From NCBI GenBank assembly GCA_046539845.1, contig JBKHGE010000012.1:1-52209 (forward strand): DNA of 52,209 nt, given 5' to 3'. The notes under the pieces were generated by a model that was not told the DNA's origin, made no database searches, and saw only the letters and a list, made by a program, of their open reading frames with translations. The position numbers were made by a program, and so were the translations under genes. Position 1 is the stretch's first letter. Every line of letters starts with the position of its first letter. Positions 1 through 17,997 of the stretch are shown here, in pieces. The DNA comes from Desulfonatronovibrionaceae bacterium (lineage in GTDB: Bacteria; Desulfobacterota; Desulfovibrionia; Desulfovibrionales; Desulfonatronovibrionaceae).

Positions 1-1573
1 ATCTTAGCTCAATCATCCTGGGGATGGTCCGCTTTAAAAGACCTGCTCCGTCTTTTATCCCCCGGTTCAGATCCAGGGGGCGCTTTTTGGTCTCCGCCTT
101 GCGGCTGAAAAGGAGCAACTTGCGGACCAATTGGGCGGAGCGATCCACCGATCTCTCCACCGTTTCCAGTCTTTTTGTGTCCGCTTGCCGGAGGCCGCTC
201 CGGTCTAGGAGTTGGAGATTGCTCCTTATGACCTGCAAGAGGTTGTTAAAGTCATGGGCCACTCCCCCGGCCAGCACTCCGACGGACTCCATTTTCTGGG
301 CCTGGAAAAGCTGGTCCTGCAGCCTTTTTTGTTCCTCCTCCGCCTGTTTGCGCTCGGTTATGTCCGCGTGTGTGCCCACCATGCGGGTGGCCCGACCGCT
401 GCTGTCTCTGGCCACCACCTTGCCCTTGCCTTGAATCCACCGGACCTCCCCGGTTTTGGTCAGCATCCGCGATTCGACCCGAAACGCATCTGACTTGCCC
501 TCTATGCACTCCATATTCGCCCCCAGGGAGCGCTCCCTGTCCTGGGGATGAATATGCCTTTTCCAGAAATCCTCGTTATAAGGGATTTCCTCCGGGGTGT
601 ACCCAAGCATCAGCGCATAGGCCGGGCTGTAATAGACCTCCCCGGTCTGGATATCCCAGTCCCACAGGCCCTCGCCACTGGCCTGCATGGCCAAAGCGAA
701 ACGCTCTTCGCTTTTTTGCAGCTCCAGCTCGGCCAGTCTTTTCTCGGTTATGTCCTCGGCCGTGCATACCACGTGTCGTACTCGGCCCTGCTCATCCAAG
801 GCAGGAATCTTCTGGATGGAGAGCAGCCTTTTTTCTCCGGAGGCGTCTGTCACCCATTCCTCGGTGTCTTTGGTCCTTGCCCCGGAAAAGACCTCTTTGT
901 TGCCGGCCCGGCAAACCTCGGCCTCCTCATGGGGTAGAAATTCATACATGTCCCGGAAGGCGATATCTCCGGGCTCGAACCCGAGAAATTCCGCATGAGC
1001 GCGGTTGACCGCCCCGTAGGTAGACCCGCTTAAAAGATACCAGATCTGGGTCCGGATGTTATCCAAAAGGATCTGCTGACTGCGCCTTGTTTCCTGCAGC
1101 TTCTTTTCCGCCTGCTTGCGCTCGCTTATGTCCCGGACATAGGCTATCTCGAACTCCTGGTCGCCGAGACGCAGAAAATTTGCGTCTACCCGTACCGGCA
1201 GGAATCCGCCGTCCTTCTTTCTGTGCACGGTCTCAAAGCTTACGATCTTATTTTTTCTGTACAACTCCCAGGATTGCTCCCGGTCCTGCGGGGAGTAATT
1301 CGGATCCACGTCCGAAATATCCATGCCCAAAAGCTCCTCCCGCGAATAGCCCAGCCAGGTGCAGGCGGTGGCATTGACATAAATGAACCGCCCGCCGGGG
1401 TCGATCCAGAAGACAGCCAAAGCCGCCTGATCCAGAGATATGCGTGCCAGATCGGGATCCAGCCCTGCCCCGGATATGTCCAAAGGGCCCGAGCCAGGGC
1501 TCATTTTTACCAGCCGATCCTCCAGTTCCCTGACCCTGGCCGCAAGTCCTTCGTATGTTGGTTTTTTATCCAT
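1..1573 (-). CDS. Multi-PAS sensor histidine kinase (probably hybrid), 3' end beyond the window
   Basis: Absent from the ORF track because it has no stop in the window. Translated by hand from ATG 1573: [21 protein letters not shown] segment ([30 protein letters not shown]...[11 protein letters not shown]), then H-box [24 protein letters not shown] near 230-300 in the same frame. Confidence 0.9.
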
Positions 1574-1761
1574 CCCCCACCCGGATTGATTCAATTTTTC
1601 CCTTTTTCGGCTACTGGAAAGGACAATGCCCGCAATATAGCAATGATGGGCGTGCATGTCCATACGGGCCCAAGGGGAGACAACTGTCTCTTTGCCCTTG
1701 CCCCGGCCGGGTTGACACCCGCATTCTAGGCCCTTAAGCCAAGAATAAACAGGAGGGAGAG

Positions 1762-2813: not shown

Positions 2814-3149
2814 ATGCTGCTCGACATTCAAGAACGCTACGGGCCCGGAGCCAAGATAATGAAGGCCCTGGGACACCCGACCAGACTGTTTATCGTGGAC
2901 ACGCTGAGCAGACAAAACAGATGTGTTTGCGAGCTGACCGAGATGATCGGCGCGGATATATCCACAGTGTCCAAGCACCTGTCCGTACTCCGGGAGGCTG
3001 GGGTGGTGACCAGCGAAAAGCGGGGTACTGAGGTGCATTACCGCTTGGCTGCACCGTGTGCGGCCGATTTTTTCAAGTGCCTGGACAACATGCTCAAGAC
3101 TGGATTTAAACGGCAAAAGAGGTGCTTTCCCGACTTTGCTTGGGATTAA
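2814..3149 (+). CDS. arsR: ArsR/SmtB family transcriptional repressor
   Basis: KALGHPTRL...RCVCELT...STVSKHLSVLREAGVV winged HTH; directly upstream of arsC. Confidence 0.88.
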   Translation: MLLDIQERYGPGAKIMKALGHPTRLFIVDTLSRQNRCVCELTEMIGADISTVSKHLSVLREAGVVTSEKRGTEVHYRLAAPCAADFFKCLDNMLKTGFKRQKRCFPDFAWD

Positions 3150-3213
3150 AGCGGATTGATTCTTTTGCGAAAATGAACTGACCCGAGCTTACCCGGGTCC
3201 GCAGGGGCAAGTA

Positions 3214-3651
<438 letters not shown>

Positions 3652-3746
3652 CGGACAATCTGCTAGCTCGATGCGGGGACAATGAACCCGGGTACTGGCA
3701 GCCCGAAAAGTTCGGTTTCCCAAATAGCTAAAAATCAAGACTAGGA

Positions 3747-4421
3747 ATGAACATCAAAGAACGCCAGAGCGCGTAGATGTATCTCCCGGAAGATGTGGAT
3801 ACGGGCGACTCCCTCTTTCAGGAGGGGTTGTATATGTTGGTCTTGGTTTTCATCCTTATCATTGCCGCGTTTGCCGCCCCTGGGGAGAGGGCGCACGGAT
3901 TGTGGCTGGCCATATACGAAATCAAATGGGTCGTGACCGGGGTACTTGCTTATTGTTCTCGCCCTGATGCTAAAATCCTGGTCTGAAGGCAAGGAGATCG
4001 GATAATGGGTGCATTCCACCTGGGGATTTATGAAGCAGATATTCCCTTTGCTTTTCGCCGGGGTACTCTTTGCCGGATTCTTTCTGGACCGGCCTGGAAA
4101 CCCGGGACTCATCCCGGAGCACTTCGTAGTCGAACTGGCCGGGGCAATTCGCTGTAGGCCAATCTTTTTACTGCCTTGGCCTCGGCGCTCATGTATTTCG
4201 CCACCCTGACCGAAGTGCCCATCCTGCAGGGGCTTTTGGGTTTGGGCATGGGGCAGGGCCCGGCTTTGACCATGCTTTTGGCCGGCTCGGCTCTGTCCCT
4301 GCCCAATCTCATTGTCATCGGCAGTGTCATGGGCTGAAAGAAGACCGGGACCTTTGCCGGGCTGATTGTTGTTCTGTTCACCCTGGCGGGCATGAGTTAC
4401 GGGACGTTTTTCACCGCCTGA
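3747..4421 (+). pseudogene. Decayed DUF318/ArsP-like permease
   Basis: Fragments in different frames: MNIKERQSA*MYLP..., STWGFMKQIFPLLFAGVL...RPGNPGLIP, and MYFATLTEVPILQGLLGLGMGQGPALTMLLAGSALSLPNLIVIGSVMG*KKT (TGA at 4335-4337). Most of the N-terminal half appears to be missing. Confidence 0.8.
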
Positions 4422-4464
4422 AACCCGGACAAAAGGGCAAAAACAAGCTAAAAAGAAGAAGATC

Positions 4465-4701
4465 ATGGATATCAAGGTACTCGGACCGGGGTGTCCCAAG
4501 TGCAAGAAAGCTGAGGAACTAGTCGTGTCCGTACTCCAGGAAGAGGACATCCCCGCGCATGTGGAAAAAGTAACTGACGCCATGGATATCGCCAATTACG
4601 GGGTGTTCGGCACACCGGCAATAGTGGTGGACGGGCAGGTCATATCTGTGGGCAAGGTACCCGGCAAAGAGGAAATAAAGGCCTGGGTCCGGGGGGAATA
4701 A
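4465..4701 (+). CDS. Small thioredoxin-like redox-active disulfide protein (MTH895-like)
   Basis: IKVLGPGCPKC (CxxC) and YGVFGTPAIVVDG; a typical partner of DUF318 permeases in ars clusters. Confidence 0.88.
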   Translation: MDIKVLGPGCPKCKKAEELVVSVLQEEDIPAHVEKVTDAMDIANYGVFGTPAIVVDGQVISVGKVPGKEEIKAWVRGE

Positions 4702-4803: not shown

Positions 4804-6936
4804 TTAAAAGCCGAGCGTCCCGCCACTTTGCGGACGGGATTGTGCGCTCATTGGATCTTTAAGGGCCCTTATGGAATTCAAAACAGCCATGAGGGCTACG
4901 CCCACATCTGCAAACACCGCCTCCCAGATTCCGGCCAGACCAAAGGCGCCGGACAGGACGAATACCGCCTTGACGCCCAGAGCCAAAACAATATTCTGGT
5001 AGACGATCCTTTTGGTCCGGCCGGCTATGTCCAGGGCCAGGGGGAGTTTGCTCAGGGATCCGTCCATCAGGACCACGTCCGCGGCCTCCACTGCCGCATC
5101 CGAGCCCAGTCCCCCGACAGCCACGCCGATATGGGCCCGGGCCAAAACCGGGGCGTCATTGATGCCGTCCCCGACAAAGGCCAGCTTCTCCCCAGCGGCC
5201 AAGCCGGATTCCAGTTCCTCCACCTTTTGCACCTTGTCCTCGGGCATAAGCCGGGCGTAAACCCGATCCACCCCCGCCTGTGCTGCCATACTATCCGCGG
5301 CCACTTGTTCATCCCCGGTGAGCATGACTGTATCCCGGACCCCGCGTCCTTTAAGACCCTGCACCGCTGCCGCACTGTCCGGCTTGAGCTCGTCGGAGAG
5401 GACCAAGTATCCGGCATACACTCCGTTTACCGCCACATGGATCAAGGTCCCTTTCACCGGGCAGTCGCGGCAGGCGATATTTTCTTCCCCCAGCAGGCGG
5501 TCGTTTCCGGCCAGTATAGTTTTCCCCCGCCAAACCGCTCGGACCCCGCGGCCCTTAAGCTCTTGGAATTCCTCCAACCCATCTTTGTCCATCTCCCGGT
5601 TGCAGGCCAGTCTTATGGATCCGGCTATAGGGTGATCGGAATTGATCTCCGCCAGGGCGGCCCAGCCAATTACCTCTTGCCGGGAAAAATCGTTCGCCGC
5701 CGACACCTCGGTCACCTTAAACACCCCGCGGGTCAGGGTGCCGGTCTTGTCCAGGGCGACTATCCGCAGCCTGGTCAAGGCCTGCAAAAAATTAGCACCC
5801 TTGACCAGTATCCCGGAGCGGGAGGCGCTCCCGATCCCAGCGAAATACCCGAGGGGGATGGAGACGACCAGGGCACAGGGGCAGGAAATGACCAGAAGGA
5901 CAAGGGCCCGGTAGGCCCAATCACTGAATTCCGCTCCCGGGACAATCAAAGGGGGAATAGTGGCCACCGCCAGGGCGCCGAACACTACCGCAGGGGTATA
6001 CCACTTTGCGAACCTGGTGATAAACTGCTCGGTCGGGGCCTTTCTGGCTGCAGCGTTTTCCACCAGATCCAAAATCCTGGAGGCGGAGGAATCGGCATAC
6101 CTCTTCTCCACCTGGACCCGCAAAAGACCGCTGTCGTTTATAGACCCGGAAAGGATATCCCCCCCAGGCTCTACCCGCCGGGGCAAAGACTCACCGGTCA
6201 ATGCCGAGGTATCCAAGAACGAACTCCCGCTTATGACCTTCCCATCCATCGGCATCCTTTCCCCGGGCCTGATCTCGATTATCTGCCCGGGCCAAACGCT
6301 TTCCGGGTCCACTTGGCTGGTCATGCCTCCCTGCACCAGATTGGCGTAATCCGGCCGGACATCCACGAGTTCGGATATAGAGCGCCTGGAACGATTGACC
6401 GCCCGTTCCTGAAAATATTCGCCTACAGCGAAAAAGAGCATCACTGCCACCGCCTCGGGTAGCTGGCCCAGGGCAAACGCCCCCAGGGAGGCCACGGTCA
6501 TAAGGAAATTCTCGTCAAAGAGCTGACCGCGGCCGATATTTCGCAGTGCGGCCCAGAGCACTGGCGCCCCGGCCAAAAGATAGGCGGGGACAAAAAACAG
6601 GTACTCCCCGCGGACACCCAAGACCGCAGGAATACTGCCACCCAGAACCAACCCCGCGGAGAAAAACAACCCGGCCCCTATTATCCTCGCCAGCCTGCGC
6701 CAAAGGCCGCCGTGCTCCCCAACCCATTCTTTCCCGCTTTGAGCCGGGACAAGCCGCACCCGCGGGTGCACCTCCTGTATGACCTCCTTGGCCTCTTTTT
6801 CCTTTGCCGGGTCCAGGTGCACGGCATTGGTAGCGGGATTGATACTGACCCCGGACAAATCCGGCACCCGCCGCAGCCTGTTTTGGATCTTTTCCGTGCA
6901 ATCCGGACAACTCAAGCCCTTGATAATATATTTCAC
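4804..6936 (-). CDS. cadA: Heavy-metal P1B-2 type ATPase (Zn/Cd/Pb efflux, CadA/ZntA-like)
   Basis: N-terminal GLSCPDC HMA motif, TGES, SCPC, DKTGT, HP and GDGINDAP motifs; K in TM7 and FADVG in TM8. Start set at GTG 6936 after an AG-rich SD. Confidence 0.9.
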   Translation of the reverse strand: MKYIIKGLSCPDCTEKIQNRLRRVPDLSGVSINPATNAVHLDPAKEKEAKEVIQEVHPRVRLVPAQSGKEWVGEHGGLWRRLARIIGAGLFFSAGLVLGGSIPAVLGVRGEYLFFVPAYLLAGAPVLWAALRNIGRGQLFDENFLMTVASLGAFALGQLPEAVAVMLFFAVGEYFQERAVNRSRRSISELVDVRPDYANLVQGGMTSQVDPESVWPGQIIEIRPGERMPMDGKVISGSSFLDTSALTGESLPRRVEPGGDILSGSINDSGLLRVQVEKRYADSSASRILDLVENAAARKAPTEQFITRFAKWYTPAVVFGALAVATIPPLIVPGAEFSDWAYRALVLLVISCPCALVVSIPLGYFAGIGSASRSGILVKGANFLQALTRLRIVALDKTGTLTRGVFKVTEVSAANDFSRQEVIGWAALAEINSDHPIAGSIRLACNREMDKDGLEEFQELKGRGVRAVWRGKTILAGNDRLLGEENIACRDCPVKGTLIHVAVNGVYAGYLVLSDELKPDSAAAVQGLKGRGVRDTVMLTGDEQVAADSMAAQAGVDRVYARLMPEDKVQKVEELESGLAAGEKLAFVGDGINDAPVLARAHIGVAVGGLGSDAAVEAADVVLMDGSLSKLPLALDIAGRTKRIVYQNIVLALGVKAVFVLSGAFGLAGIWEAVFADVGVALMAVLNSIRALKDPMSAQSRPQSGGTLGF

Positions 6937-7028
6937 ACCCCGGTCTCCCTTTTTCCCTCTTATCAATCGCAGGCTGCCCCCAAAGCCGGGCCGGGTCTTC
7001 CGGCCCAAGGACCGGCAGACCCGGCCTA

Positions 7029-7391
7029 TCAGGTGTGGCGGACATGCTCCAGGGCCTGGGCCAAAAGCGAAGAGACGTGCTCATCGTCCACGGAGTAATA
7101 GACATTCTTCCCTTCCCGCCTGTATCTGACCAGCCGGGCAGCCTTTAAGACCCGAAGCTGGTGCGAGACCGCGGACATGCTCATATCCAAAACCATGGAC
7201 AGATCACACACGCAGAGCTCCTTTTGGGCCAGGGCATGCAGGATCTTGCTCCTGGTTGTGTCCCCCAGGGCCTTGAACAGTTCGGTCATCCGCCTAAGCT
7301 CGTCCTCCTCCAGCATAAGCCGCCGGACAAAGCAAACCGCCTCCTGATCAAAACCGAATTCCTCGCAGACATCGCTCTTTGCATTTACCAT
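7029..7391 (-). CDS. CadC/ZiaR/SmtB-like metal-sensing ArsR repressor
   Basis: N-terminal Cys (DVCEEF), ELCVCDL and alpha5 site DDEH-x10-H; upstream of the P1B ATPase. Confidence 0.88.
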   Translation of the reverse strand: MVNAKSDVCEEFGFDQEAVCFVRRLMLEEDELRRMTELFKALGDTTRSKILHALAQKELCVCDLSMVLDMSMSAVSHQLRVLKAARLVRYRREGKNVYYSVDDEHVSSLLAQALEHVRHT

Positions 7392-7496: not shown

Positions 7497-7524
7497 TTGA
7501 CATATCCGTTTATCCGGATATAAT
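7497..7524 (+). promoter_or_regulatory. Consensus sigma70 promoter of arsR-hgcAB with an overlapping palindromic operator
   Basis: TTGACA (7497-7502)-N16-TATAAT (7519-7524); ATATCCG-N6-CGGATAT (7502-7521) spans the spacer and overlaps the -10 box. Confidence 0.8.
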
Positions 7525-7530
7525 GTTTTC

Positions 7531-7902
7531 ATGCATAAAAAGGCCCTTATTTTTAAGGCCCTGTCCGAGGAACCCAGACTGCGTATCCTTTCGCTTTTGA
7601 CTTCCGGCGAGCTCTGCGTCTGCGAAATCGAGGCGGCTCTAGGACTCCCCCAGTCTACAGTTTCCCGGCATCTGGCCCTGCTCAGGCAGGCCGAGCTCGT
7701 CCAGGGAAGGAGAAAAGGCGTCTGGATGTACTACCGGCTGTTGGACGATCCTGACGGCATGCACAAGCAGATCCTGGAGGTTGTTCGCATCTATCTCACG
7801 CAGGATCCCGCGGCTCAAAAGGACCTGTCCAGGCTGAAGGATTATTTCGCCCGCGCAAAAAACTCTCCCTGCTGCCCGCACCGGGAGAAATCCCTGGACT
7901 GA
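7531..7902 (+). CDS. arsR: ArsR-family repressor heading the hgcAB operon
   Basis: FKALSEEPRLRIL...GELCVCEI...QSTVSRHLALLRQA; C-terminal CC pair (SPCCPH). Confidence 0.88.
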   Translation: MHKKALIFKALSEEPRLRILSLLTSGELCVCEIEAALGLPQSTVSRHLALLRQAELVQGRRKGVWMYYRLLDDPDGMHKQILEVVRIYLTQDPAAQKDLSRLKDYFARAKNSPCCPHREKSLD

Positions 7903-7953
7903 ACCCGGATAGGCTAAACCAGACAGGACAAAAAATTCACTTTGGAGACAGGC

Positions 7954-9204
7954 ATGCAGAAACCGCCCCCATTCAACGGTACCGGGCTCCCCTCCAGGTG
8001 CTGCGACTCGGAACAGGAATGCTGCTCAACCGCCCCAAAAAGCGCCGCGGCACCTCCTTTGCCGTATACATTCGTGTCCCGGCTAGACTCCCAGGAGCCG
8101 GAGGGGGAAAACGAACCCTGTTGCGGACCTCCTCCCGGCCCTTCGGCCGGGCGCTGGGAACTGCCGGGTTACAAAATCTATCCGTTTGTAACCGGATTTG
8201 TATCCACCCCTGCGGGTTGGATCCCCGCACTCTCCACCCGCAGGAAGAAAGTGGATCTAGCGGTCGCCCTGCTCATCCGGACCGGTTTCCGTCACCAGGG
8301 ACTGGAAGCAGTGACCCCCGGTTTATATTGCCTGGGAGCACCGGATCAGAACTCCCCGGTTCTGGTCACAGCTAATTACAGACTGAGCCTGGACGCCCTG
8401 CGCTTTAATTTAAACGGTACGCACGCCTGGATTCTGGTCCTGGATACCAGGGGGATAAATGTGTGGTGCGCCGCCGGGAAAAAGCTCTTTTCCACCCAGG
8501 AGGTGATCCGCATGGTGAATGTAGCCGGTGTGGACAAGATTGTGGCCCATAGAGAGCTCATCCTGCCCCAGCTGGCCGCAACCGGTGTGGCCGGGCACGA
8601 AGTAGCCAAGGCTGGCAATTTTTCCGTTACCTGGGGCCCGGTTCGCGCTGAGGATATCTCGAGTTTTCTTTGCACCCGGCGGGTTGATCCCAGGTTGCGC
8701 ACCGTCACTTTTAACCTCCGGGAAAGGGCAGAACTTATCCCCTTGGAATTCTATAATTTTTTCCAAAAAGGGGTGTTGGCCCTTGTTTTTTTGTTTTTTA
8801 TTTCCGGGATCGGTCCGAATTTGTTCTCAATTTCCGCCGCCTGGAGCAGGGGAATCCTTGCGGCCTAGGGGCTGCTGGCCGGAGCGCTAGGGGGACTGAT
8901 TTTTTTGCCCCTACTCCTTCCTTGGCTGCCCGGGAGGGCCTTTTCTTTGAAGGCCCTTTTTCCGGGTCTGGCCCTGGGTCTGGCCCTCATTTGGGGCGCC
9001 AAATCCGGATTGGGCCTTGCCGAGGCCCTGGCCATGCTTGTTTTATCCGCTGGGACGAGTTCGTTTCTGGGAATGCATTTTACCGGCTCCACTCCCTATA
9101 CCTCGCCTTCCGGAGTGGAAAAAGAAATGAAGTTGGCCCTGCCCCTGCAGGGAGCGGCCTTTCTGGCCGCAATCGCCTTGTGGACCGGGTCGGCTTTTGT
9201 TTAA
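7954..9204 (+). pseudogene. hgcA: Mercury methylation corrinoid protein HgcA, interrupted by an in-frame TAG at 8866-8868 (pseudogene, readthrough or sequence error)
   Basis: Cap-helix motif GINVWCAAGK, plus SPVLVTANY, LILPQLAA and WGPVRA. The transmembrane domain continues in the same frame after the stop (...SRGILAA*GLLAGALGGLIFLPLLLPWLPGRAFSLK...FTGSTPYTSPSGVEKEM). Followed by hgcB. ATG 7954 has a GGAG SD. Confidence 0.92.
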
Positions 9205-9215
9205 ACGGGGGAGTT

Positions 9216-9506
9216 ATGCGCGGTTTTAGATACCTGTCTGACGTGTCCACCTTACGACTGGACAAAGAAAAATGCGTCGGCTGCGGTCAATGTGTGGCGG
9301 TCTGCCCCCACGCGGTGTTCAAAGTGACCAACGCCCGGGCGGAAATAGTGGACAAAGACGGGTGCATGGAATGCGGGGCCTGCGCTTTGAACTGCCCGGG
9401 CAAAGCCCTGGATCTGGACCCAGGCGTGGGTTGTGCCGCACTTATCATCAGCAGATGGCTCAAAAAGGCGGGGCTGTCCCGAGGGACATCCCCCTCATGC
9501 TGCTAG
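9216..9506 (+). CDS. hgcB: Mercury methylation ferredoxin HgcB
   Basis: Two CxxCxxCxxxCP clusters (CVGCGQCVAVCP; CMECGACALNCP), GVGCA and C-terminal CC. ATG 9216 follows GGGGGAG, 11 bp after hgcA. Confidence 0.93.
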   Translation: MRGFRYLSDVSTLRLDKEKCVGCGQCVAVCPHAVFKVTNARAEIVDKDGCMECGACALNCPGKALDLDPGVGCAALIISRWLKKAGLSRGTSPSCC

Positions 9507-9551
9507 GCGAGCCCCGAACCCGTAACGCACAAGTCACCGGGGGGACCCGGA

Positions 9552-9974
9552 TCAGGAATTGCTGTCCAGCACCAGCGGGGGTTTGCCCCGCCTAAAGCGT
9601 AAATAATTTATAATCCTCAGCGTTGGTCCCCGGGACACGATCCAGCGCTCCAGCCTGAATTTGCCCGGAAAGTTCATGAGCATCATCCCCACCAGAATGG
9701 TCAATACACCCTGCCCGGGCAATAACAGCATGGCCACTCCGGCCGCGACAAGCACAGCACCGGCCAGATTCTTCACCACCTGCAAAAGCAGCCACAAAAC
9801 AGGGAAACGCCTGCGCCCCAGGAAACTTTCGGGTCGCCTCTCTCCGGAGAAATAGTCCGCCGGCAATCGGACCACTGCCCAGGGAATCACTATCAGGGCG
9901 GCAAGAAACATGAGCAACGAGACCCCGGCCAGACTCAGAGAAGCTGCCGCGTGTTCAACAAACCATTCCAGCAT
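9552..9974 (-). CDS. PGPGW-domain membrane protein
   Basis: RLPADYF...AGVAMLLLPGQGVLTILVG...FPGKFRLERW; SD GGAGGAG before ATG 9974. Confidence 0.75.
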   Translation of the reverse strand: MLEWFVEHAAASLSLAGVSLLMFLAALIVIPWAVVRLPADYFSGERRPESFLGRRRFPVLWLLLQVVKNLAGAVLVAAGVAMLLLPGQGVLTILVGMMLMNFPGKFRLERWIVSRGPTLRIINYLRFRRGKPPLVLDSNS

Positions 9975-17292: not shown

Positions 17293-17997
17293 ATGCTCAA
17301 GGCCGTCTCCATAGTCGGATACAAAAATTCCGGAAAAACCGGTCTGGCCTCGGACCTGGCCCGGGAGCTGGAAAAACGGGGAACCGCCTGCGCCGCGGCC
17401 AAATTCTCCTCCCATGGCTTTGACAAACAGGATACAGACACCCAAAGGCTCTGTGCCTCGGCCGCTCCGGTAATCGGCATCGGCCCGGAGGAAAGCGCCG
17501 TGTTCTGGCCACAGAGGATAAAGCTCGCCGATCTGGCCCATCTGGCCGGGGACCGCCTGCTCATTGTCGAGGGCGGAAAGTCTTTGACCATTCTCCCCCG
17601 CATCGTTATGGCCCGGGATGAAGAAGAGGCCCGTAAGCTGGACAACGGCCTGGCCCTGGCCGTATGGGGGGAGGAGCCCCTGGCCGGCCTCCGGGCTGTA
17701 AGCAGCCTCTCCCGGCTGGCGGACCTGGCCCTGGAAAAAGGCTTTCTTTTGCCCGGTCTGGACTGTGCCACTTGCGGCCGTTTGGACTGCCTGCACCTGG
17801 CCCGGGAAATCGTATCCGGTGCAGCCGGCCCCGAGGACTGTGCCGCCTCTAATCCGGGCACGGAGATCAGGATAAACGGCCGGCAGCTGGCCTTAAACGG
17901 CTTCTTGAACGAGATGGTCACCAGGGCCATTCTGGGCTTGATTTCTCCGCTCAAGGGATTTGCCCCGGGGGAAATAACCATCAACATAAAGAATTGA
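17293..17997 (+). CDS. mobB: Molybdopterin-guanine dinucleotide biosynthesis protein MobB with C-terminal Fe-S domain
   Basis: IVGYKNSGKT Walker A, IVEGGK, and LPGLDCATCGRLDC...C Fe-S motif. Confidence 0.82.
   Translation: MLKAVSIVGYKNSGKTGLASDLARELEKRGTACAAAKFSSHGFDKQDTDTQRLCASAAPVIGIGPEESAVFWPQRIKLADLAHLAGDRLLIVEGGKSLTILPRIVMARDEEEARKLDNGLALAVWGEEPLAGLRAVSSLSRLADLALEKGFLLPGLDCATCGRLDCLHLAREIVSGAAGPEDCAASNPGTEIRINGRQLALNGFLNEMVTRAILGLISPLKGFAPGEITINIKN

Follow-up and report, generated by a model that had tools for sequence, protein, structure and literature searches.

A recent Gln-to-amber nonsense mutation most likely inactivating hgcA in one strain of a Desulfonatronovibrionaceae bacterium

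The hgcAB gene pair is the marker of mercury methylation, and in a Desulfonatronovibrionaceae bacterium, a sulfate reducer from a salt mat (GenBank assembly GCA_046539845.1, contig JBKHGE010000012.1, positions 1 to 52,209, the whole analysed stretch of 52,209 nucleotides being called the window) the hgcA frame is interrupted by one amber codon, which raises the question whether this codon is an error, is decoded as an amino acid, separates the halves of a split protein, or silences the gene. Re-reading of the frame 7954-9204 placed the hgcA start at ATG 7954 and its end at TAA 9202-9204, with the TAG at 8866-8868 (context GILAA-stop-GLLAG) as the sole internal stop; an earlier note on this DNA had likewise described a gene open but for this codon and free of frameshifts, with the cap-helix motif present and motifs kept past the stop, and all of these descriptions held. 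Where at least 90% of 119 homologues agree on a column, the frame matched 32 of 39 such columns downstream of the stop and 101 of 114 upstream. The features of the locus are as follows.

7497..7524, plus strand: putative sigma-70-like promoter consensus (TTGACA, 16 nt, TATAAT; 12/12 matches) ahead of arsR-hgcA-hgcB
7531..7902, plus strand: ArsR/SmtB-family regulator directly 5′ of hgcA (NF033788, 99.7 bits versus a cut-off of 55), in the same arrangement in the same-genus genome G002
7954..9204, plus strand: hgcA reading frame of 416 codons, interrupted at codon 305, with an expected product of 304 aa (P0002)
8116..8127, plus strand: N-terminal PCCG motif, the Cys-Cys form of a site at which many relatives have Cys-UGA (selenocysteine)
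8458..8481, plus strand: cap-helix motif NVWCAAGK (residues 169-176, Cys172), intact and 5′ of the stop
8743..8743, plus strand: second derived change, Leu264, in the broken allele (Val in the intact allele and in 116 of 120 aligned rows)
8866..8868, plus strand: nonsense codon TAG where the conspecific allele has Gln305, midway along predicted transmembrane (TM) helix 2 (residues 293-324)
8890..8907, plus strand: Shine-Dalgarno (SD)-like GGGGGA (8890-8895) and in-frame TTG (8905, codon 318), a possible restart that is probably incidental Gly-Gly coding
9216..9506, plus strand: hgcB ferredoxin, intact, carrying a CMECGA motif, Cys-Cys at the C-terminus and an SD of its own (NF040864, 125 bits versus a cut-off of 99)

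The surroundings of the stop bear the same intact appearance that the earlier note had reported for hgcB and the promoter. The hgcB frame runs from ATG 9216 to a stop at 9504-9506, and the adjacency of an hgcB with C(M/I)ECGA and a terminal Cys agrees with membership of the HgcA family; the 12/12 promoter consensus is a prediction; a scan at a looser threshold found 1 site versus 0.9 expected by chance, and the region 7497-7740 is 76.7% identical in G002. That promoter consensus, arsR and hgcB are all intact in the TAG strain counts against a simple knockout. Other metal-related genes lie nearby, namely a TauE/SafE permease (1762-2709), further ArsR-family genes (at 2814-3149 and, on the minus strand, at 7029-7391, besides that at 7531-7902) and, in divergent orientation to arsR-hgcAB, a heavy-metal P-ATPase of the Cd type (4804-7008, minus). 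Several ORFs of 136-284 aa at 3109-4595 (minus) and 24-1729 (plus) had no Pfam match at E 0.001, the two minus-strand ones having no NCBIfam match either.

The TAG at 8866-8868 is real. Five sequencing runs (X1-X5) contain part of the stretch, available as contigs only, a form that drops rare variants, and the contigs of X4 and X5 do not cover the stop site. No RNA dataset was among the listed runs, which carries no information on expression. One separately assembled contig of run X1 covers 7500-9700 at a depth of 40.7 with zero differences in 2201 nt and carries the same TAG; X1 is perhaps the window's own source, so this speaks against an assembler slip although the sample is not independent. 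Run X2, another possible source of the window, shares a fraction of 1.00 of 232 sampled words and probably carries the TAG as well, since one substitution should slightly lower the word share. The change is neither an indel nor a homopolymer slip, and in a control on pheS in 201 genomes of the same order, 0 stops occurred among the best 150 matches (45 lower-scoring ones outside). An exact 29-base pattern spanning the stop had no match in metagenome_contigs, a collection in which near-identical records may be left out. Contig-level data in which rare variants are dropped, with two runs that could both be the source, leave some room for a sequencing or assembly error or for a minority allele chosen by the assembler, but the repeated base in X1 makes the error option raised earlier quite improbable. 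The source assembly (2.34 Mb, 65 contigs, 98.91% complete) yielded no second hgcA.

A lone in-frame TAG in a corrinoid-related gene of an anaerobe resembles pyrrolysine decoding (pylTSBCD), which the earlier note had listed among its options together with recoding. The genome offers these options nothing: pylS-C, pylS-N, pylB and pylD all gave no match over the cut-off in the 98.91%-complete genome, whereas a Methanosarcina control passed each; 0 of 27 genomes (the source and 26 relatives) yielded a PylS; and none of the 45 tRNAs detected by ARAGORN in the source genome has a CUA anticodon, the set including one tRNA-Sec and a tRNA-Gln(CTG). RF1 is intact, with prfA over the cut-off, and TAG closes 275 of 1010 long non-overlapping ORFs, so that neither a depletion of TAG as terminator nor a loss of RF1, as expected of reassignment, was observed. 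The TAG is also unconserved (0 of 158 loci covering the column), the sister allele described below encodes Gln there, and the stop sits in a membrane helix rather than in an active site. A pyl cluster might in principle have been missed by an assembly in 65 contigs, yet pyrrolysine insertion or genome-wide amber recoding at codon 305 has a vanishingly small probability, and we regard pyrrolysine, a suppressor tRNA and recoding as practically ruled out.

A whole-genome screen for genes split by one stop returned 47 TAA, 23 TGA and 47 TAG candidates, which by eye were mostly adjacent genes having their own start codons; the screen missed the hgcA stop and is therefore insensitive, so no pseudogene count was drawn from it. 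At two of its sites (contig C32, minus strand near 7783, and contig C24, minus strand near 17324) a TGA is followed by coding-like sequence with no early ATG, and these are possible selenoproteins or other nonsense alleles.

Selenocysteine is a known cause of an in-frame 'stop' inside hgcA, at an N-terminal Cys-Sec site (Haft preprint, 10.1101/2022.07.06.499078). The codon there is a UGA, conserved and following a Cys in the N-terminal arm, whereas the amber of the window is unconserved and lies in a membrane helix. Most close relatives have an in-frame TGA there, and UGA was counted in 28 of 133 loci at column 57; the HgcA of the window is Cys-Cys at this site, and the TGA of the relatives is thus irrelevant to the amber. 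The source genome, which keeps a tRNA-Sec, and G002 share the Cys-Cys form with HgcA proteins 61% identical, while the HgcA of another same-genus genome, G003, is 39% identical and Cys-UGA like those of other family members, a pattern that suggests two hgcA lineages within one genus.

What the codon replaced was revealed by run X3, whose contig (7500-9325, depth 5.4) differs from the window by 10 substitutions and 1 one-base indel. One of these, T8866C, turns codon 305 into CAG (Gln), not TGG. Consistently, the 90% protein cluster of the truncated product has two members, the 304-aa product and the 416-aa P0122 (present in NCBI and Logan). The sole differences of P0122 from the window, at residues 33, 264 and 305, are precisely those that the substitutions of X3 predict. 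The CAG allele is known from this one contig of depth 5.4 and from the P0122 record, which perhaps stems from X3's own sample; the TAG strain is the deeper-covered one (40.7 versus 5.4), this depth ratio not being a cell share. The X3 strain also has an Arg5Lys change in HgcB (window 9229), at an Arg modelled as a contact in ND132, and its arsR-hgcA spacer shows a one-base gap (7929).

An intact conspecific allele therefore lies one substitution away at the stop, and no further lesion was found in the frame. The direction would be from CAG to TAG, given the sense codon found in all homologues. The nine hgcA substitutions between the alleles comprise 6 synonymous, 2 missense and 1 stop, and 6 of 9 synonymous exceeds the neutral expectation of 26-31% (P 0.012-0.029); this mostly synonymous divergence indicates that hgcA was under purifying selection for most of the alleles' divergence and that the stop is young. 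Leu264 offers a weak hint of relaxed selection in the broken allele. From these comparisons, we infer that the TAG is a recent, strain-level CAG-to-TAG nonsense allele. The proposal of a recent TGG-to-TAG knockout was hence right as to the recent knockout and wrong as to its origin, a Trp codon being ruled out by the CAG of the sister allele and by the rarity of Trp in the column. Aligning the homologues at this position, a check proposed earlier, gave Thr 45, Ala 29, Leu 13, Ser 8, Val 8 and only 5 Trp among 120 proteins, and 0 stops, 2 Trp and 1 Gln among the 158 covering loci of 160 related ones (the top 80 by score of each of two scans, a choice skewed to intact genes). Column 305 is, judged by this composition, variable and tolerant of many residues.

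The consequence of ending at residue 304 was considered on an AlphaFold2 model of the intact P0122 (76-sequence alignment, mean pLDDT 82, about 96 at residue 305), in which the C-terminal helices span 262-284, 293-324, 330-348, 355-379 and 385-413, with residue 305 inside the second. A sequence search for a solved HgcA structure found none and matched only CFeSP subunits. HgcA has five TM helices (Cooper 2020, PMC7305189), and the product of the window does not hold this five-helix domain in one polypeptide. Contacts of the TM domain with HgcB involve Asn245, Arg250, Tyr303 and helices 4-5 (PMC7305189); by the cap-Cys alignment (93 to 172, offset 79, Tyr303 falling on Tyr382), these contacts would all map past the stop. 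Methylation was abolished by a stop placed after residue 166 or 187 (Smith 2015, as cited in PMC7305189); by the same offset, these stops would fall at about residues 245 and 266 here, removing the whole TM domain. The window allele resembles these engineered truncations of P. mercurii ND132, which are non-methylating, in sparing the corrinoid domain and removing membrane helices; unlike them, it is natural and, extending about 38 residues beyond the longer truncation by the inferred offset, still includes TM1 and part of TM2, so it is not identical to the experimentally tested ones.

Taken together, these observations are best explained, with a probability of about 0.82, by a recent Gln-to-amber nonsense mutation in one strain that most likely abolishes HgcAB activity. 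In one strain lineage, a C-to-T transition would have created the amber codon from the CAG (Gln305) of an hgcA that was normal until then, and RF1 would terminate at codon 305. The resulting 304-aa product would keep TM1 and one third of TM2 along with the corrinoid domain, and lack TM3-5. HgcB would normally bridge the two HgcA domains by docking on the later helices; with these docking helices lost, the HgcAB complex should not assemble, and little or no methylmercury should be made. The allele would then be a young pseudogene with decay still to come, a recent knockout of the ordinary kind rather than a case of unusual genetic coding, and the strain a probable hgcA-positive non-methylator.

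A leaky allele has to be weighed against this nonsense reading, in which near-cognate readthrough of UAG, often by tRNA-Gln, would restore Gln305 and give a little full-length HgcA with reduced but non-zero methylation. When RF1 is present, background readthrough does not usually exceed one percent, and RF1 is intact here. The RNA after the stop is ordinary as well (-29.5 kcal/mol, with 25% of 80-nt hgcA windows equally stable), and none of the 158 related loci covering the column shares the stop. On the other side, the genome has a tRNA-Gln(CTG), column 305 accepts many residues, and Q, Y, K, W and E are inserted at UAG in E. coli, mostly in an RF1-deficient strain (PMC4333366); a Gln at the UAG would be the ancestral residue, which makes readthrough the main loophole, and HgcA and HgcB are low-abundance proteins (PMC7305189), so that even trace readthrough could matter. 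We judge such leakiness unlikely.

The remaining way to keep a function is a split HgcA, in which translation restarts at the TTG of 8905 or at a TTG at codon 332 and a 99-aa membrane piece rejoins the 304-aa piece and HgcB. The GGGGGA ahead of the TTG at 8905 is present as the earlier note claimed, and its computed SD duplex (-9.5 kcal/mol) is stronger than that of hgcA's own start (-6.4), but an SD at least as strong precedes 4 of 26 internal NTG codons of hgcA, and the run codes Gly-Gly and is unchanged in the intact allele. With a restart at 8905, the core of TM2 would lose residues 305-317, among them Gly310 (117 of 120) and the invariant Gly314. Undiminished conservation past the stop fits a split protein, yet a young stop alone predicts the same. 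A split hgcA is mentioned in PMC6491731, and in genome G327 a separate, independent nonsense codon sits six codons upstream, whereas the other breaks known in hgcA, at about residues 197, 213, 227, 266, 278 and 287, reveal no common seam. A naturally split HgcA, as suggested in the earlier note, is accordingly very unlikely. The published case, L21-Syr-AB, is like the present one in having hgcA in two ORFs beside hgcB in a hypersaline-mat sulfate reducer; the window species differs in displaying both intact and broken alleles, the passage on L21-Syr-AB in PMC6491731 giving no lesion, position, activity or intact sister allele.

How often hgcA is broken elsewhere was estimated in two samples. 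In the order-wide one, 112 of 401 genomes matched NF040863, and 110 were counted besides the source after G183 was left out as a degenerate paralogue (L022, on contig C19, a full-length HgcA-like protein, 29% identical, with neither the cap-helix Cys motif nor the TGST motif); four of the 110 were broken, G327 by a TGA and G028, G058 and G355 by frameshifts near 213, 197 and 287, respectively. In the phylum sample, 125 of 401 genomes exceeded the NF040863 cut-off, and 3 of the 124 counted besides the source were broken, namely G705 (stop at Trp227, the contig ending within hgcA), G545 (at 266-319, a gap together with a change of frame) and G742 (frameshift near 278). Pooling both samples, which have two genomes in common, gave a broken copy in 7 of ~232 other hgcA-bearing genomes (about 3%), a count in which contig-end partial matches were scored unbroken, several cases were judged by coordinates, and breaks were seen at the assembly level; some of the seven are perhaps assembly errors. 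All seven have an hgcB over the cut-off. In two of the frameshifted genomes, the hgcB match contains one in-frame TGA (G028:C10:7899-8162 and G355:C208:29057-29320), which could represent either further decay or the selenocysteine-containing HgcB that has been reported.

The TGA of G327 (L020:1690-1692) falls in the Arg299 column (Arg in 119 of 120) and is probably a changed Arg codon; the gene is otherwise full, and its hgcB is intact. Two independent nonsense codons, at 305 in the window and 299 in G327, beside an intact, promoter-linked hgcB, would be the basis for proposing that stops at the TM2 start are tolerated or even favoured, such that a TM1-anchored corrinoid domain keeps a non-mercury HgcAB function or tunes methylation down, the product acting alone, with a re-initiated membrane fragment or with trace Gln readthrough. 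A break hotspot was unsupported in the phylum sample and 160 further loci, where sites were scattered and the nearness of G327 is a single post hoc coincidence, and we hold this proposal to be unlikely. If it were true, the two alleles in one species would separate a native role of HgcAB from mercury methylation. For that native benefit, a link to arsenic (10.1101/2022.10.17.512643) and halomethane dehalogenation (10.64898/2026.04.26.720869) have been proposed; tracking both alleles through mat samples may be instructive here, with the use of the allele pair limited by an organism known from metagenome assemblies and by strains that are not isogenic.

On the preferred reading of a recent nonsense mutation, the locus bears on how hgcA is surveyed. 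The high-stringency rule asks for the motif N(V/I)WC(A/S)(A/G/S)GK of the cap helix, with TM prediction advised as an extra check (PMC10087281). By its cap-helix motif, adjacent hgcB and upstream ArsR gene, the locus matches the HgcA family (NF040863, PF03599; HgcB NF040864), and the intact allele has five predicted TM helices and exceeds the NF040863 cut-off of 275 bits (P0122 361.3; read-through frame of the window 360.4), whereas the window allele stops at codon 305 and its 304-aa product scores 246.7. With NVWCAAGK and a neighbouring hgcB, this product passes the high-stringency motif rule as given in PMC10087281 and fails the NCBIfam cut-off, making the window allele a concrete survey false positive.

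A literature search that covered few subscription journals and no supplements listed no work on hgcA nonsense alleles of natural origin; a split hgcA has already been published (PMC6491731), and the within-species pair of intact and broken alleles is documented here. The gain and loss of hgcAB have been described (PMC7438021), and the present locus fits that picture as a loss of hgcA probably caught in progress, with both alleles in one species.
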